Notes under the pieces: model-generated
The model's database searches: none
What the model was told of the DNA's origin: nothing
The model's input: only the letters and a program-made list of their open reading frames with translations
Program-made: the position numbers and the translations under genes
In this document: positions 1 through 29,203 of the stretch, in pieces
How positions within the stretch are numbered: position 1 is the first letter of the stretch
Layout of the letters: the number at the start of each line of letters is the position of its first letter
Assembly: GCA_052388025.1 (NCBI GenBank)
Contig: JBQTIP010000020.1
Coordinates: 14,332 to 78,331, forward strand
Direction of reading: 5' to 3'
Source of the DNA: Actinomycetota bacterium
GTDB lineage: Bacteria > Actinomycetota > UBA4738 > HRBIN12
Length of the DNA: 64,000 nucleotides

Positions 1-48
1 CAGCTTGAACACCATCGCTTCGCCGAAAGCGCCAGCGAAGGCCTTGCT
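1..48 (-). CDS. Partial N-terminus of a hypothetical protein that runs off the left edge (MGSKAFAGAFGEAMVFKL...)
   Basis: ATG at 48 on the minus strand with an open frame to position 1; no recognisable motif; only 16 codons visible. Confidence 0.15.
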
Positions 49-288
49 CCCCATCGAAGCACGAGAGGTCGTCTAGCGCGTCATCAATGGCAGTCGAACA
101 GGGCCGGTAGCACGGTGTGGCGCGACAAGTCGATGACCCGCCGCGCCCTCCGGAGCCTCACCTCCCGCCGGCCGCACGTCCTGGATCCGGCCGCCGCGGA
201 TCACGACCTCCCGGCCGGACACCACCTCCCCGGCGAGCACATCGAACGAGCCGGCCGGCCCGGATGACCACAACCTCGGGCCCCATCC

Positions 289-624: not shown

Positions 625-1204
625 GGTGCTTTCCCGGGTGCCACGTGTCGCCCAGCCGGGCGGTCGCGAACTCGAGCGGCGCGTCCTCGAGGTCGGTCGC
701 CATCGAGTCGTTCCAGCGGTTCAGGAATCCGAACAGTCCGATGACCGCCAGCATCTCGACGATCTCGCCTTCGTCCCAGTGCTTCCGGAGGTCCTCGAAG
801 TGCTTCGACGTGACCGCGTTCGGGACGACCGAGGCGTCTCGCGCGAATCGCAACGCCGCGCGTTCGGCTTCCGTGTACAGCGGGCTCCGCTCGAAGTCCC
901 AGATCGCCGAGATCTTTTCGTTCGGAACCCCGCGCATCATCGCGTCGACCGCCTCATGCGCCTGGCAGTACCGGCAGCCCGCGGCCTTGCTGGCGACCAT
1001 CGCGATCAGCGGCTTCAGCCCGACGGGGACCGTCCCGGTGCGCCAGATCTGGGTGATGAGCTCCGAGAACGCCATCAGCACCTCCGGTCGCCTGGCCATG
1101 GTGAAGAGGCTGTTCGGCACGAAGCTCAGCGTGTCGTCGTAGAGCCGGAACAGCGACTCCAGCTCCGGATGATCTTCCCGCCGGAGCGGCTCCACGTTTG
1201 CCAT
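614..1204 (-). CDS. Carboxymuconolactone decarboxylase / AhpD-like peroxidase family protein
   Basis: 196 aa; AhpD-type CxxxH core (AAGCRYCQAHE); helical CMD-family composition; 11-nt overlap with the cutA start suggests an operon. Confidence 0.65.
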   Translation of the reverse strand: MANVEPLRREDHPELESLFRLYDDTLSFVPNSLFTMARRPEVLMAFSELITQIWRTGTVPVGLKPLIAMVASKAAGCRYCQAHEAVDAMMRGVPNEKISAIWDFERSPLYTEAERAALRFARDASVVPNAVTSKHFEDLRKHWDEGEIVEMLAVIGLFGFLNRWNDSMATDLEDAPLEFATARLGDTWHPGKHREE

Positions 1205-1271
1205 CGATCCCCCTTGCGCCGAGTACGGGCGGAACCGTCAGACTATCCCGCAAGCTCGGAAGGGGGGAACG

Positions 1272-2033
1272 ATGAGGTTCGAGGGCAAGACCGCATTCGT
1301 GACCGGCGCGGGGCACGGGATCGGCGCGGCCACCGCCGTGCGCCTGGCGAGCGAGGGCGCCGCAGTGCTCTGCCTCGACAAGAACGGCGAGACGGCGGCG
1401 AAGACCGCCGACGCGATCGTGGTCGAGGGCGGCCGGGCCGATAGCGCCGAGGCAGACGTCCGCGACCGCCGGTCGGTGACGGCCGCGCTCGACCTCGCGC
1501 TCGACCGATTCGACGCGGTCCACTACCTCGTGAACAACGCCGGGCTCGTAACGATGACGGGCTTCGACGACCTGACCGACGACGAGTGGGACCTGGTCCT
1601 GGACGTGAACCTGAAGGGGCAGTTCATCGTCGGGCAGATCGTTTCTCCGGCCATCGAGGCGGCGGGCGGCGGCGCCATCGTGAACCTGGCGACGATCGAA
1701 TCCGAGGTGGTGGTGGCCTCCGGGCCCACCTGCCAGCCGCACTACAACGCCTCCAAGGGCGGCGTGAAGATGCTCACGAAGGCGATGGCCCACGAGCTCG
1801 GACCGAAGGGCATCCGCGTGAACGCCGTCGAGCCCGGTCCGATCAACACGGGCTTCGCCGGTGGCGACATCGACACGCCCGAGGCTCGGGCGTCCTGGTT
1901 GCCGCGCATGATCATCAAGCGGGCCGGCCGGCCGGAGGACGTCGCGGCCGTGATCGCGTTCCTCCTTTCCGACGACGCGTCGTTCGTCACCGGGGCGATC
2001 CTGCCGGTGGACGGCGGCTTCCTCGTGCATTGA
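1272..2033 (+). CDS. Short-chain dehydrogenase/reductase (SDR) family oxidoreductase
   Basis: TGAGHGIGAA Rossmann motif, NNAG motif, catalytic YxxxK (HYNASKGG); 253 aa; RBS GGAAGGGGGGAAcg 7 nt upstream. Confidence 0.85.
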   Translation: MRFEGKTAFVTGAGHGIGAATAVRLASEGAAVLCLDKNGETAAKTADAIVVEGGRADSAEADVRDRRSVTAALDLALDRFDAVHYLVNNAGLVTMTGFDDLTDDEWDLVLDVNLKGQFIVGQIVSPAIEAAGGGAIVNLATIESEVVVASGPTCQPHYNASKGGVKMLTKAMAHELGPKGIRVNAVEPGPINTGFAGGDIDTPEARASWLPRMIIKRAGRPEDVAAVIAFLLSDDASFVTGAILPVDGGFLVH

Positions 2034-2057
2034 GATGGGCGCGAAGCGAGCCGACCG

Positions 2058-2986
2058 TGGTTGAGCGGACGGAGATCGAGGCGGCTCACGAGCGGATCGC
2101 GCCGTACATCCGCAAGACCCCCGTGCTCGATCTCGAGCCCGGCGCGTTCGGCGTGCCCGGCCGCCTCGTCCTCAAGCTGGAACTGTTGCAGCACACCGGT
2201 TCCTTCAAGGCGAGACCGGCCTTCAGCCGCATGCTGGCAGCCGAGGTGGGTGAGAGCGGGGTCATCGCCGCCTCCGGCGGGAACTTCGGCGCTGCCGTCG
2301 CCTACGCGGCCCGTCAGCTCGGGCATCGAGCGGAGATATTCTTCCCGAACACCTCCCCGGACGTGAAGATCGAGAGGCTCCGGGAGCTGGGCGCCCAGGT
2401 CAACGTGATCCCGGGGTTCTACTCGGACGCGGCGGCGGCCAGCCGCGCTCGCGCCGAGGAGACCGGCGCGCTCGTCCTTCACCCGTTCGACCAGCCGGAG
2501 GTCGTGGCCGGCGACGGCACGGTCGGGATCGAGCTCTCCGAGCAGGTGCCGGACGCCGACACGGTGCTGGTCGCCGTAGGGGGCGGGGGGTTGATCGCCG
2601 GAATCGCGTCCTGGTTCGCCGGCGAGGTCCGGGTGGTCGGCGTGGAACCGGAGCTCTGTCCGAGCCTCCACACAGCGCTGCAAGACGGAGAGCCGGTGGA
2701 CGTCGAGGTCGGCGGCATCGCGGTCGACTCGCTCGGACCCCGGCGCGTCGGGGACATCGCGTTCGAGACGGCGAAGCGATTCGTCGATCAGGTCGTGCTG
2801 GTATCGGACGAGGCCATCCACGACGCTCAGCGCAGGCTGTGGCGTGACCTCCGCCTGATCAGCGAGCCGGGCGGCGCGGCCGCGCTCGCGGCGCTCACGT
2901 CGGTTGGCTATCAACCGGAAGCGGACGAGCGCCTAGTGGTCTTGGTCTGTGGGGGGAACACCGATCCCGCGTCGATCGCCGTCTGA
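2058..2986 (+). CDS. PLP-dependent threonine/serine dehydratase family (fold-type II) enzyme
   Basis: SFKARPA (SFKxRG-type PLP lysine motif) and the glycine-rich GGGGLIAGIA loop; about 309 aa from GTG 2058. The 466-aa ORF in the track is an N-terminal over-extension in a GC-rich frame. Confidence 0.75.
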
Positions 2987-3425
2987 TCGAGGGCTCGCTC
3001 ACCGCCTCCGGGCTCTCCTCATTCTGCTCCTTCTCTCGCCCTTCACGATCAGGGTCGCCTCGGCCGGATGCAGTGGAGCCATCATCTTCGTGGACGCAAC
3101 GAGCGCGTCGCCCGGCGAGACGATCGTGATCACGGGCGACGGGTGGCGGGACGACTGCTCGGATACGAGCAGCGGACCTCGCGGGGCGTGCGCCGCCGAG
3201 CCCGAGCCGGACCATCCCCTGAGCGACATCGTGATCGAGATCAGGAGGATCGGCGATCCCAACACACTGCTCAGGCTCGCCGAGGACGTCGCCGCGGACG
3301 GAGAGTTCCAGTTCCGAGTCGAGGTGATCGTCCCGAATCTCGAACCCGGCGAGTACGTCTTGATGGCGCATACGGGATCGGTCTCGGGGTTCCCGCGGCC
3401 AAAGCTGCAGATCGAGACCGAGTAG
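2949..3425 (+). CDS. Secreted hypothetical protein with a signal peptide
   Basis: GTG start overlaps the dehydratase 3-prime end; the N-terminus has a basic n-region followed by LLILLLLSPFTIRVASA↓G (signal-peptidase-like site); the mature part is acidic with no recognisable domain; start is uncertain. Confidence 0.4.
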   Translation: MGGTPIPRRSPSDRGLAHRLRALLILLLLSPFTIRVASAGCSGAIIFVDATSASPGETIVITGDGWRDDCSDTSSGPRGACAAEPEPDHPLSDIVIEIRRIGDPNTLLRLAEDVAADGEFQFRVEVIVPNLEPGEYVLMAHTGSVSGFPRPKLQIETE

Positions 3426-3521
3426 CCGCCCGGTCCGTGCCTTCCCTGGCGGGGGCCGTGTAACTCCGTCGCCGACTAGGGAGTACCGTCTCAGGGTTAC
3501 TCAGCGCGAGGAGAACGAAAC

Positions 3522-4857
3522 ATGGCTTCCCTCTCCATCGAGGATCTGTCCCGCAAGGACTACGACACGGTCGTCGTCGCGGCGCCCGATGTCCAAGGGC
3601 GGCTGTTCGGCCGGCGGATCCCGGCGAGGCGGTTCCTCACGGAACCCAGCCAGCACGTCGACATCTGCGTCTGTGCGCTCGTGTGGGACATCGCCGAATA
3701 CCCGGGCTTCAAGATTCCGTTCGCCGGCGCCCACACGGGCTGGCAGGATTTCTTCCTCGCGCCGGACCTCTCCACCCTCCGGCCGTATCCGGGCGTCGAG
3801 GGCACAGCGATCTGCATCGCCGACATCCACGACGAGACGGGCGAGCTGCTGGAGATCGCGCCGCGCACGATGCTCCGGCGGCAGGTCGAGCGCGCGGCCG
3901 GTCTCGGCTACGACGCCGTTATGGCCTCGGAGCTCGAGTTCTACCTGTTCCATGGTGACCTGCGCACGGCCCGCCTGAACCGCTTCCGCGACCTCGAGCC
4001 CACCACGCTCGTCCGCTCCGACTACAGCATCGTCGGGCAGGCCGTCCAGGAGCCGTTCATCCGCCGCGTTCGGAACGAGATGGACGCGGCCGGCATCCCG
4101 ATCTGGGCGTGCCAGGCGGAGTACGGCCTCGGCCAGTGGGAGGTGAACCTCGAGCACGCCCACCCGATCGAGATGGCCGACCGCCAGGTGATCTACAAGT
4201 CCGGAGTCAAGGAGATGGCGCTCCAGTCGGACCTCGCCTGCACGTTCATGGCGCGCCCGAACGACGACATGGGCTCGTCGGGCCACTTCCACGTCTCGCT
4301 CTGGCAGGACGGCGAGCCCGTGTTCGCCGAGCCCGGCGCGCGGCTCTCCGCCGTTGCGAAGGGCTTCCTCGCCGGGCTGATGAAGCACCTCGACGAGACC
4401 GCGCTGTTCTTCGCGCCGTACGTGAACTCCTACAAGCGCCACCTCACAGAGGACTTCGGCGGCGGCATCAACGGGTGGGGGCTTCGACAACCGCACGATC
4501 GCGTTCCGCGTCGTCGGGCACGGCGGCTCGCTGCGCGTCGAGCACCGCTACCCCGGCGCCGACGCGAACCCGTACCTCGCCGCGGCCGCGATCCTGGCCG
4601 CGGGGCTCGACGGCATCGAGCGCTCGCTCGACCCGGGCCCTCCGTTCGTCGGCAACGCCTACGAGGACCCGGAGCTGCCCCGCACGCCCGAGTCGCTGCT
4701 GGATGCGCTTAGCGCCTTCGAGGCATCGGCGTTCGTCGCCGAGACCTTCGGGAAGGAGGTGGTCGAGCACTACGGGGCGCACGCCCGCGGGGAGTGGGCG
4801 GGCTACCTCCGCGCCGTTACCGACTGGGAGGTCCTGCGCGCCTTCGAGCAAGCGTGA
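3522..4857 (+). pseudogene. Glutamine synthetase-like gamma-glutamyl-amine ligase (GlnA3/PuuA/IpuC-like), interrupted by a +1 G insertion
   Basis: ATG 3522 with RBS AGGAGAacgaaac. GS catalytic-domain sequence runs through ...FGGGINGW, then the frame breaks at the G5 run 4476-4480; the protein resumes in the -1 frame (GFDNRTIAFRVVGHGGSLRVEHRYPGADANPYLAAAAILAAGLDGIE...) and ends with TGA at 4855-4857. Confidence 0.7.
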
Positions 4858-4941
4858 CCGAAGGGATCGAACGCCGCCGGTTGCCCGGAAGGTCGTTCCG
4901 GAGCAACATAGCTCCGTCCCGCTCGCTATCGGAGGAACGAC

Positions 4942-6183
4942 GTGCTCACAAGCGAGATCGATCTCGCGAATCCCGACGGCTACGTCGAGCGGATCCCATA
5001 CGAGTGGTTCGACTACCTGCGCCAGGAGCAGCCCGTGTACTGGCACGAGGAGCCGACGCCGAACCACGGTTTCTGGGCGGTCACCCGCTACGACGACCTT
5101 GTCGCGGTCCACATGGACTGGCGGACGTACTCCTCGGAGCTCGGCGCCGTATCGCTCGAGGAGCTCGACGAGGAACAGCTCCAGATCCGCAAGACGATGT
5201 TGGAGACCGATCCGCCCCGGCACCGCGAGATGCGCAACGTCTGCAACAAGAAGCTTTCGGCCCGCGCCGTCGGCAGGTACGAGGAGTTCATCCGCGGCGT
5301 GGCCCGAGACGTGCTCGACCGGGCGCTGCCAATGGGCGAGCTCGACTTCGTCCAGGAGATCTCCAGGGAGCTCCCGATCCGGTTCCTCTGCGCGATCCTC
5401 AAGGTGCCCCAGGAGGACGCCACGATGCTGATCGATTGGGGCGACCAGATGATCGGCAACCAGGACCCGGACTTCTCGAGGGCCGTCGTCGACCAGGTGG
5501 ACACGGAGGAGTTTCGCTACCTGCCGTTCCGCTCGCCTGCGGCCCTCGAGGCTTTCGAGTACGCCGACCGCCAGCGCGACCTCCGGCTTGAGGAGCCGAC
5601 CGACGACGTCATCGCCGCGCTCACGGTCGCCCAGTCCGAGGGGATCCTGACCGAGCACGAGTTCCACACGTACTTCACGCTCTTGATGATCGCGGGCAAC
5701 GAGACGACTCGGCACACGATCTCCCACGGGATCCTCGCGCTGATGGAGCACCCCGATCAGATGGAGCGACTGCGGAACGACACTTCGCTCATGCCGACGG
5801 CCGTCGAGGAGATGCTCCGGTGGGCCACGCCTGTCCTGCACTTCCGGCGCACGGCGTCGTGTGACACCGAGCTCCGCGGAACGAAGATCAGGAAGGGCGA
5901 CAAGATCGTCACCTGGTACATCTCGGCGAACCGCGATGAAGCGGTGTTCCCGGGCCCCTACCGGTTCGATATCTCGCGCTCGCCGAACGAGCACGTTACG
6001 TTCGGCCCCGGCGGCCCGCACTTCTGCCTTGGGGCGCACCTCGCGAGGCTCGAGACCCGGATCCTGTTCGAAGAGCTGCTCCCCAGGCTGAAGTCGATCG
6101 AGCTCACCGGACCGGTCCAGCGGATGCGCTCCAACTTCGTGAACGGCATCAAGCATATGCCCGTCAAGGTTCAGCTAGTCTGA
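4942..6183 (+). CDS. Cytochrome P450 monooxygenase
   Basis: Heme loop FGPGGPHFCLGAHLAR, I-helix AGNETT, EEMLRW (ExxR); 413 aa; GTG start with RBS GGAGGAacgac. Confidence 0.9.
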   Translation: MLTSEIDLANPDGYVERIPYEWFDYLRQEQPVYWHEEPTPNHGFWAVTRYDDLVAVHMDWRTYSSELGAVSLEELDEEQLQIRKTMLETDPPRHREMRNVCNKKLSARAVGRYEEFIRGVARDVLDRALPMGELDFVQEISRELPIRFLCAILKVPQEDATMLIDWGDQMIGNQDPDFSRAVVDQVDTEEFRYLPFRSPAALEAFEYADRQRDLRLEEPTDDVIAALTVAQSEGILTEHEFHTYFTLLMIAGNETTRHTISHGILALMEHPDQMERLRNDTSLMPTAVEEMLRWATPVLHFRRTASCDTELRGTKIRKGDKIVTWYISANRDEAVFPGPYRFDISRSPNEHVTFGPGGPHFCLGAHLARLETRILFEELLPRLKSIELTGPVQRMRSNFVNGIKHMPVKVQLV

Positions 6184-6194
6184 ACCAGACTAGC
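6174..6194. terminator. CTAG-rich palindromic hairpin (gCTAGTCTG-aac-CAGACTAGc) overlapping the P450 stop codon; candidate bidirectional terminator between convergent genes
   Basis: 9-bp perfect stem with a 3-nt loop; TGA of the P450 gene at 6181-6183 lies inside the left arm; related copies at 26977-26997 and 52299-52321. Confidence 0.45.
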
Positions 6195-6220
6195 GTTAGC
6201 TCACCGGAACCCCGGGCCCT

Positions 6221-7708
6221 TCAGCTCTTAGCAGCCAGACGGTTGCCGACCTCGCGAGAGACGTCGATGAGCGCGAGAACGTCGTCGTCCGTCGTGCGGT
6301 AGTTCACGAAGCACGGGCGCAGGTACACCTTGTCGTCGATCAGCGCCGAGGCGATGTAGACCCGTCCATCCTTCATCAGCTCCTGCGCCAACCGGTGGTT
6401 GTGCGCGTTCAGGTCTTCGACTCCCTCGGGCACGTGTCGGAACGGCACGATCGAGAGCACCGGCGGGCCGAGCGGCTCCAAGTCGTCGTACTGCCGGACC
6501 TCCCGGTACAGCAGCTCCGCCTCGTCGAGGTTCCGCTGGATCGCCGCGCGGAACGCAGGCGCGCCGTGTGCCCGGAACGCAAGCCAGAACTTGAGGGCCC
6601 GGAAGGGCCGCGAGTACTCCAACGTGATATCGACCGCGTGCAGCTCGTGCCGCTGGTGAGGCAGGTACCCCTCCTCGTGCTTGAAGGCGGCCTCGAGCTG
6701 CTCCCGACGCTTGACCAGCACCACGCCGCACGCCTTCGGCAGATACAGCCACTTGTGCGCGTCCACGGAGCACGAGTCGGCCCTCTCGAGCCCGGTGAAC
6801 AGGTGCGCCTTCGACGGGACCGCCGCCGCCGGCAGCCCGTACGCGCCGTCAACGTGGAGCCAGACTCCTCGCTTCTCGCACACTTCGGCGAGCGGTCCGA
6901 TCGGGTCGACCGCTCCGGTCAACGTCGTCCCGGCCGTCGCCACGACGGCGATGGGCACCACCCCCTCCGCCCGGTCCCGGTCGATCGCCTCCGCGACAGC
7001 CTCCGGCCGCACGCCCCGGTCCCGGCCGATCGGCAGCGCCCGAACGTTCGCCGCCCCGATGCCGAGTAGCTCGGCGGCGCGGATGACCGAGTAGTGCACC
7101 TCCTCCGAGCAGTACAGGGCGACGCGCCGGCCCACGAGCCCCTCCGTCCTGCTCCCCGGAAGCGCGTGCTCGCGCGCCGAGGCGAGCACCGTCGTGTTGC
7201 TGACCGTTCCACCGCTGGTGAACGCGCCGCTCCCCGCCGGGAAGCCGATGAACTCGGCCGCCCACCGGACGGCCTGCTGCTCGATCTCCGTCGCCGCGGC
7301 CGCGTAGACCGCGAGGTTCGCGTCATAGCAGGCGGCGAGCGCGTCGGCGATCGCGCCGATCTCCAAGCCCGACGATCCGATGAACGCGAAGTACCGCGGC
7401 CGGGGCTGGGCGATTGTCTCGTCGAGGATCCGGGCGGCGTCCTCGAGAACCTCGAAGACCGGAGCCGGTTCCTCCGGCAGCTCCGTCCGAAGCAGCGCTC
7501 GCACGCGCTCGTCGAGCGGCGGCTCCTCCGGCCGGAAGCGGTCGAAGCTCCGCCAGGCCTGCTCGATCAGCTCCGCCGCGCGGGCGAGCGCCTCTTCCCT
7601 CGGCGCGTCGAGTCGGAGAGGGCGCTCGCCCCAGATCCTGTGCGTGTGTTCCCCGTCCGTGCCCGGCTCAACTCCCCGGCATCGGCGCTGGCCGCGCGAC
7701 CTCCTCAC
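6221..7708 (-). CDS. Group II PLP-dependent amino-acid decarboxylase (aromatic-L-amino-acid / tyrosine / diaminobutyrate decarboxylase family)
   Basis: PLP-lysine motif SVDAHKWLYLPKACG and the GSSG/TSGGT decarboxylase fold pattern. Most likely start is the in-frame GTG at 7708 (about 495 aa), overlapping the upstream permease by 40 nt; the ORF-track start at 7786 is less likely. Confidence 0.8.
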   Translation of the reverse strand: MRRSRGQRRCRGVEPGTDGEHTHRIWGERPLRLDAPREEALARAAELIEQAWRSFDRFRPEEPPLDERVRALLRTELPEEPAPVFEVLEDAARILDETIAQPRPRYFAFIGSSGLEIGAIADALAACYDANLAVYAAAATEIEQQAVRWAAEFIGFPAGSGAFTSGGTVSNTTVLASAREHALPGSRTEGLVGRRVALYCSEEVHYSVIRAAELLGIGAANVRALPIGRDRGVRPEAVAEAIDRDRAEGVVPIAVVATAGTTLTGAVDPIGPLAEVCEKRGVWLHVDGAYGLPAAAVPSKAHLFTGLERADSCSVDAHKWLYLPKACGVVLVKRREQLEAAFKHEEGYLPHQRHELHAVDITLEYSRPFRALKFWLAFRAHGAPAFRAAIQRNLDEAELLYREVRQYDDLEPLGPPVLSIVPFRHVPEGVEDLNAHNHRLAQELMKDGRVYIASALIDDKVYLRPCFVNYRTTDDDVLALIDVSREVGNRLAAKS

Positions 7709-9161
7709 CGGACCCGACCGCGCCGGCCGCCTGGGCGGACAGACGGAACTTGCCCCGGCCGACCAGCGCCAACAGGATGACCACACCGATCACCGCCCAG
7801 CCCAGCAGGAACCAGTACACCGTGTTGAACGGCGAGGGGACCTTGTAGACGCTCGCGAAGATGGCTCCCGCTTGGATGAGGAATCCGACGGCGCCCGCAA
7901 CGACCAAGGAGCCGCTGCTGACCTTGCCCCACAATCCTCTGAAGGCCGCCAGGGCAACCGCCGCATACACCACAGCGAGCGTGAGCCCGCCGTATCCAGC
8001 CTCCCATAGGAATAGCGGGAAGTACTCTGGTCCCCCGCCGGTGTCGAGTACTCCGTGCGCGAGGCGGACCCAGGCGATCTCGGCCACGGCGATCCCCACG
8101 ACCAGCACGATCGACACGACCGGCGTGCCGTAGCGCGGCGAAACCTTCGCCAGCGCGCCCGGGATCCTCCGGTCCCTTGCCAGGGCGAAGATCAGCCGGC
8201 TGGCCGCCACAGACGCGCCGATCCCGACGGCCGCGATATCCAGGAGCAGAATGATGTTCATCAGGTCGAACAGGAAGTTCGATCCGAAGCCGCCATCCGC
8301 GGCCGGAAGCGCCAGGACCAGCACCGGCGCCCCGCTGCCGGCCCACGCCTTCGCGTCGAGCCCGAACCCGATGGCCTCCGCGTACGAGGCCACGAGGAAG
8401 TACACGGTGACGACGGCGATCGACAGGAGCACGGCTCGGGGAACTGTTCGCTTCGGGTTGGGGGTCTCCTCGGAGAGGTTCGCTGCCGACTCGAACCCTA
8501 CGAACAGCAGGATGGCGTAGAGCACGCCGTAGAACATGTTGCCGAAGCCCCCGGCCTCGCCCGGGTTGAAGGGCTCGATGCTGTTCCCGCCGTGTCCGCC
8601 CTTCACGATGATGTAGAGGAGGAAGATCGTGACGACGCTCGCGGAGAAGAGCACGAGCGCGAGCTGCGCGCGGGTCGAGATCCGGACGCCGAAGTACAGG
8701 ACGCAGAACAGGATCCCCGTGTAGACCAGGTCGAGGACCCAGTACGGGATGTTGATGTTGTAGGCCTGGCTCAGGAAGTCGGCCGTGAGCCCGCCGATCA
8801 GGAGCGGGATCGCCACGGCGAGGACGATGAGCCCGCCCGTGTATACCCACCCGAAGACGAACCCCACCCGCTCGCCGACGCCGGCGGTGATGTAGTCGTA
8901 CAACGCCCCGCAGGCGTGGATCCTCTTCGCGTACTCCGCGATGATCCAGCCGAGCGCCGCCACCCCGATGGCTGCGATGAGGATGGCGATGGGAGTGGCT
9001 ACACCCGCGCCCTTCCCGGCGTTGTTGGCGCCCACGACGAGCGACAGCAACAGGATCGCCCCGAACACTGGGCCCATGAACCCCACGGTCTGGGCGACGA
9101 CGTCGATGAACGAGAGTTTCCCTTCGCCCAGCTTCTCGTATTCAACCTGCTCGATGGCCAT
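7668..9161 (-). CDS. APC-family amino-acid/polyamine permease
   Basis: 497 aa with about 12 predicted TM segments and APC signature composition (GxG-rich helices, FGWVYTGG); translationally coupled to the downstream decarboxylase, which is the classic precursor/product antiport operon layout. Confidence 0.85.
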   Translation of the reverse strand: MAIEQVEYEKLGEGKLSFIDVVAQTVGFMGPVFGAILLLSLVVGANNAGKGAGVATPIAILIAAIGVAALGWIIAEYAKRIHACGALYDYITAGVGERVGFVFGWVYTGGLIVLAVAIPLLIGGLTADFLSQAYNINIPYWVLDLVYTGILFCVLYFGVRISTRAQLALVLFSASVVTIFLLYIIVKGGHGGNSIEPFNPGEAGGFGNMFYGVLYAILLFVGFESAANLSEETPNPKRTVPRAVLLSIAVVTVYFLVASYAEAIGFGLDAKAWAGSGAPVLVLALPAADGGFGSNFLFDLMNIILLLDIAAVGIGASVAASRLIFALARDRRIPGALAKVSPRYGTPVVSIVLVVGIAVAEIAWVRLAHGVLDTGGGPEYFPLFLWEAGYGGLTLAVVYAAVALAAFRGLWGKVSSGSLVVAGAVGFLIQAGAIFASVYKVPSPFNTVYWFLLGWAVIGVVILLALVGRGKFRLSAQAAGAVGSGEEVARPAPMPGS

Positions 9162-9256: not shown

Positions 9257-10066
9257 TCAGCCAGAGAGCTCCTCCAGGAAGGTCAGAAGCGCAGCATTGA
9301 AGGCATCCGGCTCCTCGAGGAACGGGCAGTGGCTGGAGCGGTCGAAGATCTGGAGCCTGGAGTCCGGCAGGACCCCGGCCATCCACTTTCCGGCCTCGGG
9401 GCTCGTCGCCTTGTCGTCGCCCCCGAACAGGACGAGCGTCGGGATCTTGATCTCGGGGAGAAACGGGCGATAGTCCTGGAAGGTCTGGTTCACCAGGATC
9501 GAAGTGCCGATGACCGGTGGGACCTTCGTGATCTCCGCGACGAGCAGCGCCGTCATCTCGGGCGAGGGCTCGTGCAGCATGAGGCCGGCAAACCCCTCGG
9601 CCAGGGAGGGCAGATCCATCTGGATGTGCTCGACCGTCTCGCCCAACGCCTCCAGGGTGAACAGCCCGAACGGGTATCCGTCGCTCCACGCGAAGTCCGA
9701 CGGCGGCTGGTCCACGATCACGAGCCCGGCGACGTCGTCCTGGCCGAACTCCTTGAGGTATTCGTAGGCGACCATCGCCCCCATCGACCAGCCGACCAGG
9801 ACGGGCCGCTCCACGCCGATCGCCTCGAACAGCGCCCGCAGATCCCTAGCGTAGTTCGAGACCGTGTGCCCGGTCTGGGCCCTCTCGGAATCACCGTGCC
9901 CCCGGAGGTCCGGCACGACGACGCGGAATCCGCGGGAGAAGAACTCCAGCTGCCGGTCGAAGAACCGCCCGCTGCACATCACGCCGTGGATGAAGACGAT
10001 CGGCCTTCCCTCGCCGCGGTCCCGAACGTTCAGCGTGACGCCGTTAACGGTCACTCGGTCACCCAT
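9257..10066 (-). CDS. Alpha/beta-fold hydrolase
   Basis: HGxxxxxxxF oxyanion region (FIHGVMCSGRFF), nucleophile elbow GWSMGA, C-terminal SSHCP histidine; ATG at 10066 (270 aa). Confidence 0.8.
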   Translation of the reverse strand: MGDRVTVNGVTLNVRDRGEGRPIVFIHGVMCSGRFFDRQLEFFSRGFRVVVPDLRGHGDSERAQTGHTVSNYARDLRALFEAIGVERPVLVGWSMGAMVAYEYLKEFGQDDVAGLVIVDQPPSDFAWSDGYPFGLFTLEALGETVEHIQMDLPSLAEGFAGLMLHEPSPEMTALLVAEITKVPPVIGTSILVNQTFQDYRPFLPEIKIPTLVLFGGDDKATSPEAGKWMAGVLPDSRLQIFDRSSHCPFLEEPDAFNAALLTFLEELSG

Positions 10067-10083
10067 GGCCGCGCTTTCTCCCC

Positions 10084-10962
10084 TCAAGCCGCCCACCCCC
10101 CCTCGGGCCGCTCGAACCACACGTGGACCTGGCCGGTGCCGACCGAGGCCTCGTAGTCGGAGAACTGTTCCCCCGGCGCGGAGCACGCCGCCCCCCCGAG
10201 CGCGCCGATCATGATGAGATAGTGCCCGAACTTGCCCTCCGGGCCGAACTTCTTGTACTCCGGCATCCAGTCGATCAGTCCTGCGTGGTCGCCCGCCCGC
10301 AGGAGCTCGAGCACGTGCTCGTCGGCGGCGCGAGCCTCCGGCGAGTGGATGTTCTCGAGGCTCGAGGACTCGTTGCCGCGCAGCTCACGGAACGACAGGA
10401 ACTTGTGCGTTAGCCCGCCGGAGGCGAGCAGCACGACGCGGCGGTCGATCTCCGCGATCGCGTTCCTGATGAGCTCCCCCAGGAGCAGGAAGTCCTCCGT
10501 CTGCCCGCACTGGTTGATGCCGACCGAGACCCACCGCTCGCCGCCGTTCAGGTAGGTCCAGATGTTGACGGTGCCGTAGAAGATCGGCAGGTACGGATCG
10601 TCGGAGGCGAGCACCCACGTGTCGTCACGGCCGGCCGCCTGCTTCTCCAGGGCGAAGGCGAGCTCGGGGTCCCCGGGCATGTCGTAGGGGATCTGCCGCA
10701 TCCCACGCGGCAGCTCGTGCGAGGTGAACTTCCCGCTGCGGCGCTCGTGCGCCGTGATGATGTGCTCGAACGTGACCTCCCAGTGCGTGTCGAAGACCAC
10801 GATGGTGTCGGGCCGCAGCCGGTCGAGTACCTCCGACCTGAGGCGCCGCAGCCCGGGCACCAGGCTGATCTCCTTGCCCTCGTTGATCTCGAGCCTGATC
10901 GGCTCGGGCAGCATGATGGTCGGCACGTGGGAAACGAGGCCGGCCCCGGCGATCTCACCCAT
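10084..10962 (-). CDS. Class III extradiol ring-cleavage dioxygenase, LigB/HpaD family catalytic subunit
   Basis: 292 aa; LigB-family layout with conserved His residues (HVPTIM, FDTHWE, GGLTHKF); sits between an aldehyde dehydrogenase and a hydrolase, a meta-cleavage arrangement. Confidence 0.7.
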   Translation of the reverse strand: MGEIAGAGLVSHVPTIMLPEPIRLEINEGKEISLVPGLRRLRSEVLDRLRPDTIVVFDTHWEVTFEHIITAHERRSGKFTSHELPRGMRQIPYDMPGDPELAFALEKQAAGRDDTWVLASDDPYLPIFYGTVNIWTYLNGGERWVSVGINQCGQTEDFLLLGELIRNAIAEIDRRVVLLASGGLTHKFLSFRELRGNESSSLENIHSPEARAADEHVLELLRAGDHAGLIDWMPEYKKFGPEGKFGHYLIMIGALGGAACSAPGEQFSDYEASVGTGQVHVWFERPEGGWAA

Positions 10963-10977: not shown

Positions 10978-12435
10978 TCACGTCGTCCACGGTGCGCTGC
11001 AGACGTTCTTGACGTCCGCGTAGAAGTCGAAGCTCCGCCTTCCACCTTCGCGGCCGATCCCCGAGTCCCGGGCGCCGCCGAACGGCGCTCGAAGGTCCCT
11101 GACGAAGAAAGAGTTCACCCAGACCGTCCCCGCTACGACGCGAGCCGAGACGCGCTCGGCCCGCTCCGGGTCGCCCGTGTAGACGATGGCGGCGAGCCCG
11201 TAGTCGGTCTGATTCGCCATCTCGACGCCCTCGGCCTCGTCGACGAAGCGCTGCAGCGTGAGAACCGGACCGAAGACCTCCTGGGTGAGGATCTCCGAGC
11301 CGGGCGCAGCGTCCACGAACAGCGTCGGCCGATAGTAGAGCCCGCCGAGCTCCTCGTTCGGGCCGCCGCCGAGGACGGCCTTCGCCCCGTCCTCCTTGGC
11401 GCGCTGCACGAACCCGTTGACCCGCTCGAAGTGCTCGGGTGTGATCTGCGGCCCGATGTCGGTCGAGTCGAGGCGGGGGTCGCCCTGGCGGATCGCGGAG
11501 GCCTTCTCAAGGAACCGGTCCAGGAACGTGTCGTACACGTCCTGTTGCACCAGCAGCCGCGTGCCCGCGAGACACACCTGGCCGGCGTTGTCGTACTGGT
11601 TCACGGCCTGGTCTACCGCGGCGTCGAGGTCGGCGTCGGCGAAGATCAGGAACGGCGACTTGCCGCCGAGCTCGAGCGACACGGGGGTGAGGTTCTTCGC
11701 AGCGGCGGCGCCGACTAGGCGGCCGGTGACCACGGAGCCGGTGAAGGCGATCCGATCCACGCCGGTGTGGGCCACGAGCGCCGCACCTGCCTCCTCACCG
11801 ATCCCCTGCACAACGTTGAGGACGCCGTCGGGGAGCCCGGCCGCGTGCGCGATGTCGGCGAGCATGGATGCGGTGAGCGGCGCCCACTCCGGAGGCTTCA
11901 GCACGACGGTGTCGCCGGCCGCGAGCGCGGGGGCGAGCCTCCAGGTCGCGAGCATCAGCGGCGCGTTCCACGGGGTGATGACCACGGCCACGCCGGCCGG
12001 CTCCCACCGGACGCGGTTCACGTGCTCTCGGATCTCGAAGTCATCCTCGTGCAGCGCCGCCAGCTGATCGGCGAAGAAGTGGAAGTTGTGCGCGACCCGG
12101 GGCATGACGCTGTTTCGCATCGAGCGAAGCAGGGAGCCGTTGTCGGTCGTCTCCACCACGGCCAGCTCGTTCACCCGCTGCTCGATGCCCTCCCCGATCG
12201 CGTGGAGGATGCGGGCTCGCTGGTCCGGCGCCGTGGCCGCCCAGCCGGGGAACGCGGCTCTGGCGGCAGCCACCGACGCTTCGGCCTCGCGCCCGCCGCC
12301 TCGCGCAACCATCGCGAGCAGCTCGCGGTCGATCGGTGAGTGGTCGAGGAACATGTCCGAGGAGGGGACGCGCGAGCCCCCGATCCAGTGATCGGCCGAG
12401 ACCCTGATGCCCTCGATCGTCGAGACGTTCGCCAT
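10978..12435 (-). CDS. NAD(P)-dependent aldehyde dehydrogenase (HpaE / 2-hydroxymuconic-semialdehyde dehydrogenase-like)
   Basis: ALDH signatures LELGGKSP (glutamate site) and catalytic Cys in QVCLAGTR; GxTxxG region FTGSVVTG; 485 aa. Confidence 0.9.
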   Translation of the reverse strand: MANVSTIEGIRVSADHWIGGSRVPSSDMFLDHSPIDRELLAMVARGGGREAEASVAAARAAFPGWAATAPDQRARILHAIGEGIEQRVNELAVVETTDNGSLLRSMRNSVMPRVAHNFHFFADQLAALHEDDFEIREHVNRVRWEPAGVAVVITPWNAPLMLATWRLAPALAAGDTVVLKPPEWAPLTASMLADIAHAAGLPDGVLNVVQGIGEEAGAALVAHTGVDRIAFTGSVVTGRLVGAAAAKNLTPVSLELGGKSPFLIFADADLDAAVDQAVNQYDNAGQVCLAGTRLLVQQDVYDTFLDRFLEKASAIRQGDPRLDSTDIGPQITPEHFERVNGFVQRAKEDGAKAVLGGGPNEELGGLYYRPTLFVDAAPGSEILTQEVFGPVLTLQRFVDEAEGVEMANQTDYGLAAIVYTGDPERAERVSARVVAGTVWVNSFFVRDLRAPFGGARDSGIGREGGRRSFDFYADVKNVCSAPWTT

Positions 12436-13537: not shown

Positions 13538-14969
13538 GTGCGCCTCGTGACCCCCGCCGGGCGCTCGCGCTCCACGGCGCCGTCGAAGCGCGTGATCATC
13601 ATCGGAGCCGGCATCGCGGGGCTGGTCGCGGGCTTCGAGCTGCTCCGCCGGGGACACGAGCCGCTCGTCCTGGAGGCGCAGAACCGGGTGGGCGGCCGCA
13701 TCTACACGCTTCGGGACTTCGCGCCCGGGCTGTACGCGGAGGCCGGGGCAATGCGCATCCCGCGCGCGCACGAGCTCACGCTCGAGTACTGCCGGTTGTT
13801 CGGTCTGGAGCTGCGACCGTTCGTGATGGGCAATCCCAAGGGATTGGTCTACGTCGGCGGCGTCCGCATGAGCGCGGAGGAGGCGGATGCGCGCCCGGAG
13901 CGGCTGCCCTTCGCCCTCGCCGAGCACGAGGCCGGCCGCAACGCCGACCACCTGTGGCAGGAGGCCATCGCCGACATCCGCGAGCTGCTGGAGCGGGACG
14001 GCGACGCGGCCTGGGACGAGATCGTCCGGCGCTACGACCAGTACTCGCTGTACGAGTTCCTGAAGGTCAAGGGGTTCTCCGAGGGCGCCATCGAGTACTA
14101 CGCGGTCATGAACTTCGTCGAGGCCGACATGAACAACGCCGTCGTGGAGGTGCTGCGGGAGGACCTGGGAGGCGCATTCGAGGACATGCAGGAGATCGTC
14201 GGCGGCATGGACCGGCTGCCGAACGCCTTCTTCGAGCGCCTCCAGGGCAACGTCCGGCTGGGCGCCCAGGTCCACGCGATCGACCAGGACGAGCGCTCCG
14301 TCACGGTGCACGTGAAGACGGAGGCCTCGCGCTACTCCGTGACCGGGGAATACGCGATCTGCACGCTTCCCTTCCCCGTGCTCCGCTCCGTCGAGACGAT
14401 CGCGCCGTTCTCACGCGAGAAGCAGCGGGCCATCCGGCAGCTCAACTACCCACGCCTCGACGAAGGTTCTGTTCCAGGTCCGCCACCGGAGGTGGGAGAC
14501 CGAGGACGGGATCTTCGGCGGCGCGTCCGTCACCGACCTGCCGATCCGGCGGATGAACTACCCGACGCCCGACCTCACCAACGAGCGCGGGGTGCTTCTC
14601 GCTTCCTACACCTGGGGACAGGATGCGCTCCAGTGGGGTGCGATGGACGACGAGACGCGCCTCGAGGAGGCGCTCGACGACGTGTCGCGGATCCACCCGT
14701 GGATCCGCGAGGAGTACGAGGTGGGGGCATCGCACGCGTGGTACGGGGACCGCTGGGCTCGGGGAGCCTTCGCGCTCTTCGCCCCGGAGCAGCAGACGGC
14801 ACTCCAGGAAGCGATCGTGAAGCCCGAGGGCCGGATCCACTTCGCGGGCGAGCACTGCTCCCTGTACCACGCCTGGATCCATGGGGCGTTGGAATCGGGG
14901 ATCAGGGCGGCTCGAGAGATCCATGAGACCCCACCGGCCCCGGCCCCGATCCGGGCGGAACGACTCTAG
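13538..14969 (+). pseudogene. Flavin-containing amine oxidase (monoamine/putrescine oxidase or L-amino-acid oxidase family), interrupted by a frameshift
   Basis: FAD dinucleotide motif RVIIIGAGIAGLVAGFELLRRGHEPLVLEAQNRVGGRIYT. The frame is lost after ...AIRQLNY at about 14448-14458 (C-rich run); the protein continues in the +1 frame (STKVLFQVRHRRWETEDGIFGGASVTDLPIRRMNYPTP...HFAGEHCSLYHAWIHGALESG), ending with TAG at 14967-14969. Confidence 0.75.
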
Positions 14970-27323: not shown

Positions 27324-28550
27324 TCAGTCGGTCTCTTGAGGCAGGAGCTTGCGGACGTCGACGTCGGGGTCCCGGAGGGCGGCTGGGTCCGGGCGAGCTC
27401 GGGCCTTGATCAGCGACATCGAGCGTCGCACGTCGCGCGGCCAGTTGAGACTCACCGTGGAGAGGACGACGCCGTCCTTCAGCAGGAAGGCCGCGAAGCT
27501 CCGTTCCTCGAGGCTTCCGCGGATCACCGTCTCGTCCCACTCCCTGGCGAACCCGGCCATCTGGAGGTTGGCGTCGTACTGATCGGACCAGAACCAGTGA
27601 GGGTCGTCGAAGACCTGGCCGCGACCGAGCATGTTGCGCGCGGCGACCTCTCCCATCTTGATCGCGTTGTCGTAGTGCTCGACCCGGATGCGGCCGAACA
27701 CCGGGTGATCGTGGCTGGCAACGTCGCCGGCCGCGAACACTCCGGGCACGCTCGTCTCGAGGCGCGCGTCCACTTCGATGCCCCGGTCGGCCGCGACCGC
27801 CAGGCCCTCGGCCGGCTCGGTCACCGGCTCGACACCGACGCCGACCACTGCGAAGTCGCACTCGATCTTGCGGCCCTCCTTCGTCACGACCGCTTCGACA
27901 CGGCCGTTCCCATCGAAGCGCTCCACGGTTTCTTTGAATATCATCTCGACGCCGTGATCGCGGTGCAGCCCCTCCAGGACCCGGCCGATCTCGGGGCCGA
28001 GAACTCGATAGAGCGGAGTCTCGAAGGGCTCGACGACCGTTACGTCCACGCCGAGATGGCGGAGCGAGGCCGCCACCTCGGCGCCGATGAAGCCCATGCC
28101 GGCGAGAACGACCCGTCCGCCGCGCGCGGCGGCCTCTCGGATGCGATCGGCATCCTGGGCAAAACGCAGGTCCAGCACTCCCGGAAGGTCCGCCCCGGAG
28201 ACAGAGAGGCGCCGGTTCCGGCTCCCGGTCGCGATGAGGGCCCTGTCGAACGCCACCAGCTCGTCGCCCTGCAGCACGACCGCGCGATCCACCACGTCGA
28301 TCCGCTCTGCCCGGGTTCCGAACCGCATCTCGATGCCGTGCTCCGCCCACCAGCCCTCCGGGCGAACGAAGCCTCTCTCCAGCGGCTGCTCGCCGCGCAG
28401 GTATTCCTTCGACAGAGGGGGCCGCTCGTAGGGCGGCAGCGGCTCCGCGCCGATCAGCACGAGGCGGCCCTCGAAGCCCTCCTCGCGAAGCGTCGCCGCC
28501 GCCGTCCCGCCGCAGAGGCTGGCGCCGACGATGGCGAACGTATCCCTCAT
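27324..28550 (-). CDS. FAD-dependent NAD(P)H:ferredoxin reductase (pyridine nucleotide-disulfide oxidoreductase family)
   Basis: FAD motif FAIVGASLCGGTAAATL, NAD motif VVLAGMGFIGAEVA, second FAD motif VFAAGDVA; 408 aa. Confidence 0.85.
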   Translation of the reverse strand: MRDTFAIVGASLCGGTAAATLREEGFEGRLVLIGAEPLPPYERPPLSKEYLRGEQPLERGFVRPEGWWAEHGIEMRFGTRAERIDVVDRAVVLQGDELVAFDRALIATGSRNRRLSVSGADLPGVLDLRFAQDADRIREAAARGGRVVLAGMGFIGAEVAASLRHLGVDVTVVEPFETPLYRVLGPEIGRVLEGLHRDHGVEMIFKETVERFDGNGRVEAVVTKEGRKIECDFAVVGVGVEPVTEPAEGLAVAADRGIEVDARLETSVPGVFAAGDVASHDHPVFGRIRVEHYDNAIKMGEVAARNMLGRGQVFDDPHWFWSDQYDANLQMAGFAREWDETVIRGSLEERSFAAFLLKDGVVLSTVSLNWPRDVRRSMSLIKARARPDPAALRDPDVDVRKLLPQETD

Positions 28551-28553
28551 CGG

Positions 28554-28865
28554 CTAGTCGACCGCGACCTGGAGGTCGACCCCCTCCTCACGGACTTCGT
28601 AGGTCGCGACCGGCTCGGTGGCCGGCCCGTTCACGACGGCGCCGGTAGTCACGTCGAACTGGCTTCCGTGGCAGGGACACTCCACCACACCGCCGTCGAG
28701 CTCCCCTTCGGCGAGCGAGCACTGCTGGTGGGTGCAGATGTCGTCGAACGCGTAGAGCGTGCCGCCGACGTTGGCGACGGCGACGGTAAGCTCGCCGACC
28801 GGATAGGAAGCGACGTCGCCGGAAGCGACGTCGCCGGCCTCCCCGACCCTCACGAAGTCTGCCAT
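28554..28865 (-). CDS. Rieske [2Fe-2S] ferredoxin
   Basis: CTHQQC ... CPCHGSQF (CxH-n-CxxH Rieske ligands); 103 aa; 3-nt gap to the downstream reductase. Confidence 0.8.
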   Translation of the reverse strand: MADFVRVGEAGDVASGDVASYPVGELTVAVANVGGTLYAFDDICTHQQCSLAEGELDGGVVECPCHGSQFDVTTGAVVNGPATEPVATYEVREEGVDLQVAVD

Positions 28866-29203
28866 CTCGATTCCTCCTCCCGTTCTTATCCGCAGATTCT
28901 CTACCAGAACGGGTCCGGCCCGTGCGGCTCAAGCATCGCGGCCGGCCTGACGATGCGATGCGTCGTGAAGCTCAACGCACGCCTCCGCGGGTGGGCGTTC
29001 TCTGCGCGCTGGCGGTCCTCGCCGGGGGCCGTCTGCGAGCGGGGGGGCGGGCGCAGCCCGACCTCTCGAACCCGCCCGGCGAAGGCGGCATCGAGCAGGC
29101 ATACGCCCACCTCACGCGGGAGCTGGAGAGCTGGGCCCAGGGTCACCCGGCCGAAGCCGCGATGGCGCTCGCTCAGTACGGGACGAAACGCCTCGGGTCC
29201 GAT

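Follow-up and report, generated by a model that had tools for sequence, protein, structure and literature searches.

A glutamine-synthetase-like ligase and a cytochrome P450 with an F-G-loop insertion form a candidate amine-catabolism module in an Actinomycetota contig

We analyzed a stretch of 64,000 nucleotides (the window; G+C content about 69%) from an Actinomycetota bacterium (assembly GCA_052388025.1, contig JBQTIP010000020.1), in which positions 3522–6183 carry two genes on the plus strand, a ligase resembling glutamine synthetase (GS-like), of a type that we call GS-A (3522–4857), and a cytochrome P450 (4942–6183), both with a strong third-position GC bias. With a probability of roughly 55% we regard this pair as the form taken here by a conserved module of two genes that makes up an ‘upper pathway’ of amine catabolism. 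From its family membership, the ligase would use ATP to join the γ-carboxyl group of glutamate to a primary amine, thereby masking the amino group, and from the conserved gene linkage the P450 would then oxidise the γ-glutamyl amide. The pairing itself is more than chance, as it is conserved in relatives and tracks an insertion signature of the P450. That a GS-like ligase is followed on the same strand by a P450 at a distance of 85 nt had been noticed in the initial annotation, and the open reading frame (ORF) listing, the translation and Pfam showed these coordinates and the spacing to be correct.

The P450 gene is intact and encodes a protein of 413 aa with a Pfam p450 match, which belongs to the CYP125-related clan. 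Its start codon is the GTG at 4942 behind a GGAGGA sequence and lies 85 nt past the last base of the ligase stop codon. The motifs of the I-helix (AGNETT), of ExxR (EMLR) and of the heme site (FGPGGPHFCLG) are all in place, and the protein is 100% identical to one from a metagenome-assembled genome (MAG) deposited at NCBI as ‘Actinomycetota bacterium’. The best PDB match is the reconstructed CYP125MRCA (436 bits, 50% identity), and the closest structural relatives are CYP125MRCA, CYP125, CYP124, CYP126 and CYP142; the identity to an extant CYP125A1-type enzyme, the sequence of which was rebuilt from the PDB alignment, is 35%. In P450 nomenclature a family requires more than 40% identity to its named members (PMC12100521). 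Alignment to CYP125MRCA revealed a 12-residue insertion in the F-G loop, TEEFRYLPFRSP (residues 188–199, nucleotides 5503–5538, plus strand), which falls at CYP125MRCA positions 196/197 and has the core RxLPFRSPA. The insertion is absent from CYP125MRCA, from the CYP125A1-type enzyme, from unlinked P450s with 42–49% identity and from the P450 of the Rhodococcus plasmid pR8L1, and it is present in every GS-linked P450 examined. A GS-associated P450 subfamily was defined by two features, the F-G motif R-x-[LM]-x-P-F-x-[SH]-P-A and a GS-like gene located no more than 5 kb away, and the window P450 belongs to it with the sequence FRYLPFRSPA and the ligase 85 nt upstream. Neither a CYP125-type F-G region nor a sterol-catabolic neighbourhood was found for it, as the insertion sits at the F-G cap and the neighbours are genes of amine and aromatic catabolism. 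Among the loci with sufficient upstream sequence, a GS-like gene is located within 5 kb upstream on the same strand for 31 of the 33 P450s with the insertion versus none of the 30 related P450s without it, a count which overstates the number of independent observations as many of the linked loci are closely related to each other.

Two types of ligase, GS-A as in the window and GS-B, which are about 32% identical, and two subtypes of the P450, P450-1 as in the window (relatives 72–81% identical) and P450-2 (54% identical), occur in this lineage. Relatives of GS-A with 73–97% identity keep a P450 adjacent or near: the distance from GS-A to the downstream P450 is 83 nt on the contig of P0243, which is 97% identical, 389 nt in L087, and 1.4 and 4.9 kb in the loci L001 and L002, while in L085 and L086 a P450 of the second subtype starts 106 and 79 nt after GS-A, respectively. 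The whole arrangement of the window is collinear with L087. A scan of metagenomes yielded about 24 loci in which a P450 with 72–79% identity has GS-B directly upstream, mostly with gaps of 18–130 nt, and in L088–L090 the order is GS-B, permease, saccharopine-dehydrogenase-like gene and P450. The GS-B family (L087:1088-2395; L093–L118; L088–L090) scores slightly closer to the PuuA model than the window ligase does and is often accompanied by a GNAT acetyltransferase, an APC permease, a carboxynorspermidine-synthase-like gene, an N-methyltryptophan-oxidase-like flavoprotein and class III aminotransferases.

The pairing of a GS-like gene with an insertion-bearing P450 is also found in six cultured examples from two phyla. 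On a plasmid of Streptomyces canus (L176, NZ_CP107732.1) the P450 follows the GS-like gene, and the two are divergent from a strand of catabolic genes, which encodes a TetR regulator, an FAA-hydrolase-family (FAAH) protein, an HpaD-like dioxygenase, an aldehyde dehydrogenase (ALDH), an acetoacetate-decarboxylase-family (ADC) protein, an FAD reductase and a ferredoxin. Such a pair is also present in Embleya. The order is GS, class I glutamine amidotransferase (GATase) and P450 in Sagittula stellata; amidotransferase, P450 and GS, adjoining paaABCD, in Ruegeria sp. TM1040; P450, GS and ALDH with ADC-family and FAAH-family genes nearby in Novosphingobium (L180); and P450, 2Fe-2S reductase, APC permease and GS in Mesorhizobium loti. 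The P450 of the Rhodococcus plasmid pR8L1 (40% identity), used as a control, has its own ferredoxin and reductase and lies among fatty-acid genes, with neither a GS neighbour nor the insertion. The ALDHs of the clusters are 51–63% identical across the phyla. Genes of the ADC and FAAH families accompany the pair in both phyla (L176, L180, L088, L090, L093–L096 and L118), the ADC proteins being 56–62% identical between Actinomycetota and Novosphingobium.

For the ligase the Pfam scan gave a match to Gln-synt_C with 296 bits and did not detect Gln-synt_N, the N-terminal beta-grasp domain. It stays under all NCBIfam cut-offs: type I GlnA models reach 197 bits (TIGR00653, cut-off 429) and 91 bits (PRK09469, cut-off 845), the type III GS model 234 bits (cut-off 470) and the PuuA model NF045547 206 bits (cut-off 650). 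Its identity is 27% to E. coli GlnA, 29% to E. coli PuuA and 40% to the annotated IpuC of plasmid pTC1, and the residues E137, E139, E200, E207, H257, R306, R324, E340 and R342 are invariant in the alignment of the ligase family. We reconstructed a neighbour-joining tree with bootstrap values from a direct count of bipartitions, with AtdA1, TdnQ, NpaA1 and GlnA2–4 outside the sampling. The window ligase groups with its close relatives (83%), and this clade is nested in a widespread group of ‘glutamine synthetase family proteins’ (98.5%), and this wider group is sister to IpuC with a weak bootstrap value of 53.5%. A further split at 88.5% separates GS-A, its homologues, IpuC and PuuA from GS-B and GlnA. 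A true glutamine synthetase of type I was rejected on the scores far below the cut-offs, the 27% identity and the separation from GlnA in the tree, and a γ-glutamylputrescine synthetase (PuuA) on 206 versus 650 bits and 29% identity. On scores and tree position the ligase is thus a putative member of the γ-glutamyl-organic-amine ligase branch (GoaS; IpuC/PuuA type), whose enzymes are described as incapable of using ammonium (PMC11335346). The initial annotation had taken the ligase for one of the GlnA3, PuuA, IpuC or AtdA1 type and had suggested looking for the pair in other genomes. A ligase of the IpuC/PuuA type is supported by the scores below the GlnA cut-offs, the 40% identity to IpuC and the separation from GlnA (88.5%), and co-conservation of the pair by the synteny of the relatives and the 31/33 versus 0/30 count. 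What it had named as counter-evidence, a ligase placed within GlnA1/GlnA2 or a pair that is never syntenic, was not found, in a tree which included E. coli GlnA and not GlnA2.

The ligase gene starts with the ATG at 3522 behind a GAGGAG ribosome-binding site, as seen from the ORF listing and translation, and is read in a single frame up to about 4480 and then in the +1 frame through to the TGA at 4855–4857. Past this shift the upstream frame continues as an Arg/Pro-rich nonsense tail with a stop at 4712, and the +1 frame carries the family motifs FDNRTIAFRV...EHRYPGADANPYL. Comparison with relatives located an extra G in a G-run at 4476–4481 (plus strand), with the shift after codon 320. The window reads TGGGGGCTTCGAC at this site versus TGGGGCTTCGAC in L084, L087, L085, L001 and L002, and L086 and L003 have the same four-G run (TGGGGC) within a diverged context, so that seven of seven relatives show TGGGGC versus TGGGGGC in the window. 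Deletion of one G from 4476–4481 results in a ligase of 444 aa that aligns over 100% of its length to homologues of 444–448 aa. This repaired protein is 90% identical to P0001, the best representative among the metagenome proteins, and 96.8% identical without any gap to the intact P0243, a member of the P0001 cluster. The truncated form (320 of the 444 residues) would be without the conserved DNR...R, E340 and R342 motifs. The codon bias is unremarkable both before and after the shift. A programmed +1 frameshift at GGG-GGC-TT was ruled out, as all relatives, including the 97%-identical one, have a single frame and one G fewer.

In the 84-nt spacer between the two genes (4858–4941, plus strand) there are the Shine-Dalgarno sequence GGAGGA and a promoter-like element, TTGCCC-N17-CAACAT. 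Its hexamers and their spacing are kept in L084, L085 and L086 (consensus TTGCCn-N17/18-CAAnAT) and the remaining spacer has diverged, which suggests that the conserved element may give the P450 a promoter of its own. A riboswitch or leader RNA in the spacer was ruled out, as there was no Rfam match anywhere in the window and the predicted fold of the spacer RNA was no better than that of shuffled sequence. A scan of positions 900–6400 for consensus promoters and terminators found none and is uninformative at 69% GC.

Upstream of the ligase the plus strand encodes a short-chain dehydrogenase/reductase (SDR; 1272–2033, Pfam adh_short), which shares 42% identity with its counterpart in the pTC1 ipu cluster and is found near GS-A also in L087, L001, L002 and L003, and a pyridoxal-phosphate-dependent gene of the serine/threonine dehydratase family (PALP; about 2057–2986 with boundaries taken from L173; NCBIfam NF006094, 439 bits, cut-off 331). 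In L084 and L087, relatives that are 89–90% identical to the window, the PALP gene abuts the ligase; a segment of about 490 bp at 2984–3472, recognised from breaks in blastn collinearity between PALP and the ligase, is absent from both. An ORF of this segment (2949–3425, plus strand, 158 aa) has a lipoprotein-type signal (…VASAGC…) and gave zero Pfam or NCBIfam matches, and the contig of P0243, with its 97%-identical ligase, has a 101-aa ORF at the same place. In L087 a block of CutA1, CMD, SDR, PALP and GS-A lies between GS-B and the P450. GS-B is not adjacent to the P450 in the window. That it lies immediately before the first window position, as it would by analogy with L087, was excluded, as window positions 1–228 are not homologous to the L087 counterpart (the end of GS-B); these positions are without a clear coding signal, and the synteny with L087 sets in at 229.

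On the other side the P450 converges with a minus-strand gene for an aromatic-L-amino-acid-decarboxylase-like enzyme of group II (6221–7786, likely start 7645–7708; Pfam Pyridoxal_deC), which among PDB entries best matches tryptophan decarboxylase 4obu and DOPA decarboxylase 7xin and is kept at the same position in L087, L090 and L091. It is followed on the same strand by an APC-family amino-acid/amine permease (7668–9161; Pfam AA_permease and AA_permease_2), an alpha/beta hydrolase (9257–10186), a LigB-type extradiol dioxygenase and an HpaE-like ALDH. The dioxygenase (10084–10962; Pfam LigB) is homoprotocatechuate-dioxygenase-like (TIGR02298 HpaD_Fe, 146 bits, cut-off 316), with 3,4-dihydroxyphenylacetate 2,3-dioxygenase 8iq8 as best PDB match and 53% identity to the dioxygenase of the S. 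canus cluster. The ALDH (10978–12435; TIGR02299 HpaE, 526 bits, cut-off 638) is 63% identical to the one of the S. canus cluster and 51% to that of Novosphingobium, and an IlvE-type transaminase is also among the minus-strand genes. The alpha/beta hydrolase, which lies between the permease and the dioxygenase, is intact in the window; in L087 a deletion of about 480 bp (window 9526–10006) has left a fragment of 78 aa, and it is therefore probably dispensable for the island. Together with a flavin amine oxidase (13548–14969, plus strand) the decarboxylase and the permease make up the context to which the initial annotation had pointed, and all three are present. It was also right that no ferredoxin is adjacent to the P450: a ferredoxin reductase (27324–28550) and a Rieske ferredoxin (28554–28865), both on the minus strand (Pfam Pyr_redox_2, Reductase_C and Rieske), are the only candidate electron-transfer genes in the window. 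The reductase is about 21 kb away from the P450 and shares 35% identity with the FAD reductase from the S. canus cluster. The two genes are without a Rieske oxygenase nearby, and an 81-aa ORF lies alongside at 28901–29146.

The recurrent neighbours, with the LigB dioxygenase, the ALDH, the FAAH and ADC families and the paa genes in Ruegeria, indicate that the product of the pair would be aromatic and destined for ring cleavage or for the phenylacetate route. As the conserved neighbours are aromatic ring-cleavage genes, they also make an aromatic amine a likelier substrate than a small alkylamine. In the window this amine could be made by the adjacent decarboxylase from an amino acid imported through the APC permease, with the flavin amine oxidase as a parallel direct route. 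Since an aromatic-amino-acid-decarboxylase-like gene next to a permease suggests an intracellular amine derived from an aromatic amino acid, tyramine and dopamine are the leading candidates for an arylethylamine substrate, an assignment that we make only tentatively. The P450, with electrons from partners that would be encoded elsewhere, might attack ring carbon C-3 to give a protected catechol for extradiol cleavage, or the carbon beside the amide nitrogen to give an aldehyde and glutamine. The product would then pass into aromatic ring cleavage via the LigB-type dioxygenase and the HpaE-like dehydrogenase, and in the relatives also via FAAH-family and ADC-family enzymes.

Catechols with a free amine and the aldehydes formed from them by ring fission cyclise or polymerise, which gives a rationale for a protecting group. 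A bolder version of the proposal, possible although we consider it doubtful, is a widespread and hitherto undescribed degradation route for biogenic arylethylamines (tyramine, dopamine, phenethylamine) in soil Actinomycetota and in marine and soil Alphaproteobacteria, in which the ligase glutamylates the amine and a CYP125-derived P450 makes the catechol or the aldehyde. Here the glutamyl group would keep the amine from cyclising or polymerising with the catechol and the ring-fission products, the Arg-bearing F-G insertion might grip the glutamyl moiety, and a lower pathway of LigB, ALDH, FAAH and ADC enzymes would consume the catechol or aldehyde. If extradiol cleavage acts on γ-glutamyl-dopamine, the end product would be γ-glutamyl-4-aminobutanal, which is an intermediate of the Puu pathway.

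Several points weigh against the pair being such a module. We infer the substrate, the glutamylation and the P450 reaction alike from gene linkage and family membership, and by sequence the P450 is nearest to the sterol and lipid hydroxylases of the CYP125/124/142 clan. The usual partner of the window's P450 subtype is GS-B and not GS-A, and as the L087 block separates GS-B from the P450, the adjacency of GS-A and P450-1 in the window lineage may be secondary and a by-product of an insertion. There is no P450 near the GS-A of 63% identity in L003. A scan of genome contigs by ligase alignment listed homologues of 39–48% identity from 80 genomes, with close GS-A relatives not among the matches listed, and none of these homologues has a P450 within 10 kb, which shows that the wider GS-A family, from the matches listed, is not P450-linked. 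With the promoter-like element in the spacer, ligase and P450 need not be co-transcribed. As to the enzymes that such a pathway would call for, no small ferredoxin was found anywhere in the 64-kb window, no γ-glutamyl hydrolase (class I GATase) was detected in it by tblastn with the amidotransferases of pTC1, Sagittula and Ruegeria, and the FAAH and ADC genes of the relatives are missing from it.

Some of these points would be explained if two independent functions merely lay side by side, which we consider unlikely. The P450 would then be a CYP125-type hydroxylase for the side chains of sterols, terpenoids or methyl-branched lipids, and the ligase would act separately with the SDR and the Ser/Thr-dehydratase-like gene on a small alkyl- or alkanolamine, similar to Ipu or GlnA4 and P450-free. 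This would fit the best structural relatives of the P450 (CYP125MRCA, CYP125, CYP124, CYP126 and CYP142), the common occurrence of SDR, PALP and GS-A with an SDR that is 42% identical to that of the ipu cluster, the promoter-like element in the spacer and the GS-A block that was apparently inserted between GS-B and the P450 in L087. However, it leaves aside that GS-like genes accompany 31/33 P450s with the insertion and 0/30 without it in two phyla and that in L085 and L086 GS-A directly precedes P450-2, the other subtype with the insertion; moreover, the scans of the window revealed no sterol or lipid catabolic genes and the identity to the extant CYP125A1-type enzyme is as low as 35%. Another reading, which keeps the two enzymes together and to which we assign a rather low probability, is an oxidative N-dealkylation, in which the P450 would hydroxylate the carbon beside the amide nitrogen and the pair would serve as an ATP-driven substitute for an amine oxidase that releases aldehyde and glutamine. 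In the piperidine pathway of Pseudomonas sp. KU43P a P450 reportedly acts on γ-glutamylpiperidide in this way. The Ruegeria TM1040 trio lies beside paaABCD, which degrades phenylacetate, the product expected from the dealkylation of phenethylamine, the class I amidotransferases in Sagittula and Ruegeria could hydrolyse glutamine or the amide, and in Novosphingobium and L153 the pair has an ALDH gene immediately after it. Nevertheless, a flavin amine oxidase for the same job is already encoded in the window and in L087, tyramine would still need a 3-hydroxylase to reach the catechol for LigB, for which no gene was found in the window scans, and the compact S. canus cluster has one ALDH only. 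We regard a biosynthetic role as very improbable, with γ-glutamylation as a temporary protecting or carrier device during the tailoring of a small-molecule natural product by the P450: γ-glutamyl carrier logic does occur in some actinobacterial pathways and one copy of the pair is located on a Streptomyces plasmid, but no nonribosomal peptide synthetase, polyketide synthase or other core biosynthetic genes are present in any locus, and the neighbours are catabolic (ring-cleavage dioxygenase, ALDH, FAAH, paa and permeases, with TetR, MarR and GntR regulators).

The extra G in the ligase gene raises the question of whether the module is functional at all. At least four reading-frame defects occur in the 64 kb, one in the ligase, one in the amine oxidase and two in a gene at 41998 to about 44700, and two of these four are one-base homopolymer insertions. 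As there are at least three other frame defects in the 64 kb and the 97%-identical relative is intact, the extra G is probably an assembly error rather than a real and very recent inactivation; more generally, three genes with frame defects suggest either an error-prone assembly or real gene decay. With a smaller, though still appreciable, probability the genes of ligase and amine oxidase are real pseudogenes, and the P450 would be decaying or would be served by a GS-like ligase encoded elsewhere. Such a relic is suggested by the insertion itself, which cuts the ligase after residue 320 of 444, and by the frameshift that the amine oxidase in this island also carries. A collection of 15 billion proteins contains the ligase neither in its repaired nor in its truncated form, which is consistent with a public pseudogene call. 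Independent Logan contigs of SRR34758880 match the window with 99.9%, end at 3217 and resume at 4508, so that they give no confirmation for the ligase site. On the other hand, at least four defects in 64 kb, two of them in an unrelated gene and two being homopolymer insertions, are a typical pattern of assembly errors, the ligase is otherwise free of lesions and aligns without gaps to an orthologue that is intact and 96.8% identical, and a normal codon bias is found on either side of the shift.

In the amine oxidase gene an extra C near 14449–14451 switches the frame at RQLNY|HASTKV (TACCCACGCC in the window versus the intact ...RQLNYHASTKV... of L087), with Pfam Amino_oxidase found on the C-terminal ORF only; it is the second homopolymer +1 event inside the same catabolic island as the ligase. 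The gene from 41998 to about 44700 on the minus strand is a large one of regulator type with zinc-ribbon, adenylate/guanylate-cyclase-like and AAA ATPase regions. It has an in-frame TGA at 43588–43590 (…GLAVDA*WHHGRCLAYGEG…), and its C-terminal part is apparently out of frame with a change near 42150–42360, probably a further frameshift.

γ-Glutamylation followed by oxygenation is known from a few studied cases, namely for isopropylamine, for anilines and naphthylamine and for cyclic amines. The P450s described here form a distinct subfamily that can be recognised from its sequence and is paired with GS-like ligases over two phyla, beside aromatic ring-cleavage genes. If the module acts as proposed, it would provide a function for hundreds of MAG proteins that are labelled ‘cytochrome P450’ or ‘glutamine synthetase’, it would set such P450s apart from the sterol-oxidising CYP125 enzymes which they resemble, and it would add a P450-dependent branch to the turnover of biogenic amines in soil and sea. 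Cultured carriers like Streptomyces canus NBC_00633, Ruegeria sp. TM1040, Sagittula stellata E-37 and Mesorhizobium loti NZP2037 allow direct testing. For annotation in general, the ligase gene is a reminder that one homopolymer indel can conceal a gene.

Among the known systems, the isopropylamine (ipu) pathway has been described for Pseudomonas sp. KIE171, and an annotated ipu cluster is found on plasmid pTC1 of Paenarthrobacter aurescens TC1 (PMC1713258; L172); our comparison was made with the pTC1 sequences and not with those of KIE171 itself. The pTC1 cluster has the order SDR, amidotransferase, P450, ferredoxin, reductase and ipuC, and shares with the window a GS-family ligase, which in the window, too, would make a γ-glutamyl amide, and a P450 in one cluster, with 40% identity for the ligase and 42% for the SDR. 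In contrast, the window P450 is only 29% identical to that of pTC1 and belongs to a different family, the ferredoxin, the reductase and the two class I amidotransferase-type hydrolases located by the pTC1 P450 have no counterpart flanking the window P450, and the window shows the order ligase then P450 in a context of aromatic ring cleavage instead of alanine/pyruvate metabolism. Of the ‘Ipu-like’ module proposed in the initial annotation the shared logic thus remains, whereas homology to ipu does not, given the 29% identity of the P450 and the lack of an IpuF-type hydrolase and of a ferredoxin/reductase pair.

The same overall logic is found for AtdA1, TdnQ and NpaA1, where an aromatic amine is first glutamylated by a GS-like ligase and the γ-glutamyl amide is then converted by an oxygenase to a catechol, which goes on to ring cleavage (PMC11335346). 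The downstream ring-cleavage genes are of the same kind as in the window, but these systems use a Rieske dioxygenase and anilines, whereas the window has a P450 and a likely decarboxylase-made arylalkylamine. γ-Glutamylation also opens amine catabolism in the Puu pathway of E. coli (PuuA, PuuP, PuuD) and with GlnA2, GlnA3 and GlnA4 of Streptomyces (PMC5403932, PMC8998196, PMC6529630). Here the similarity lies in the APC-type permease nearby and in the SDR and ALDH that would oxidise a protected intermediate; those pathways are P450-free, however, and the window ligase is 29% identical to PuuA, with GlnA2–4 being compared by description only.

The CYP125 family comprises sterol C26-monooxygenases, and the reconstructed CYP125MRCA is available as PDB 8vxi (PMC12100521). 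It is the closest solved relative of the window P450 and has the AGNETTR I-helix and the C-terminal motifs in common with it, but the window P450 differs in the 12-residue F-G insertion, in the absence of sterol-catabolic neighbours and in the consistent linkage to a GS-like ligase. The pip genes of Pseudomonas sp. KU43P and the pipA/CYP151 cluster of Mycobacterium smegmatis are also said to combine a GS-like gene with a P450 that oxidises a γ-glutamylated amine; reportedly, these clusters include a dedicated ferredoxin and reductase, and their substrates are cyclic secondary amines. In the literature that we searched the pairing is not described, and no report connects a GS-like gene and a P450 with homoprotocatechuate or tyramine. 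Thus, the general logic of glutamylation and oxygenation is known, and new are the P450, which is of another family and has a diagnostic insertion, the ligases, which belong to other clades, and the context of aromatic amines.

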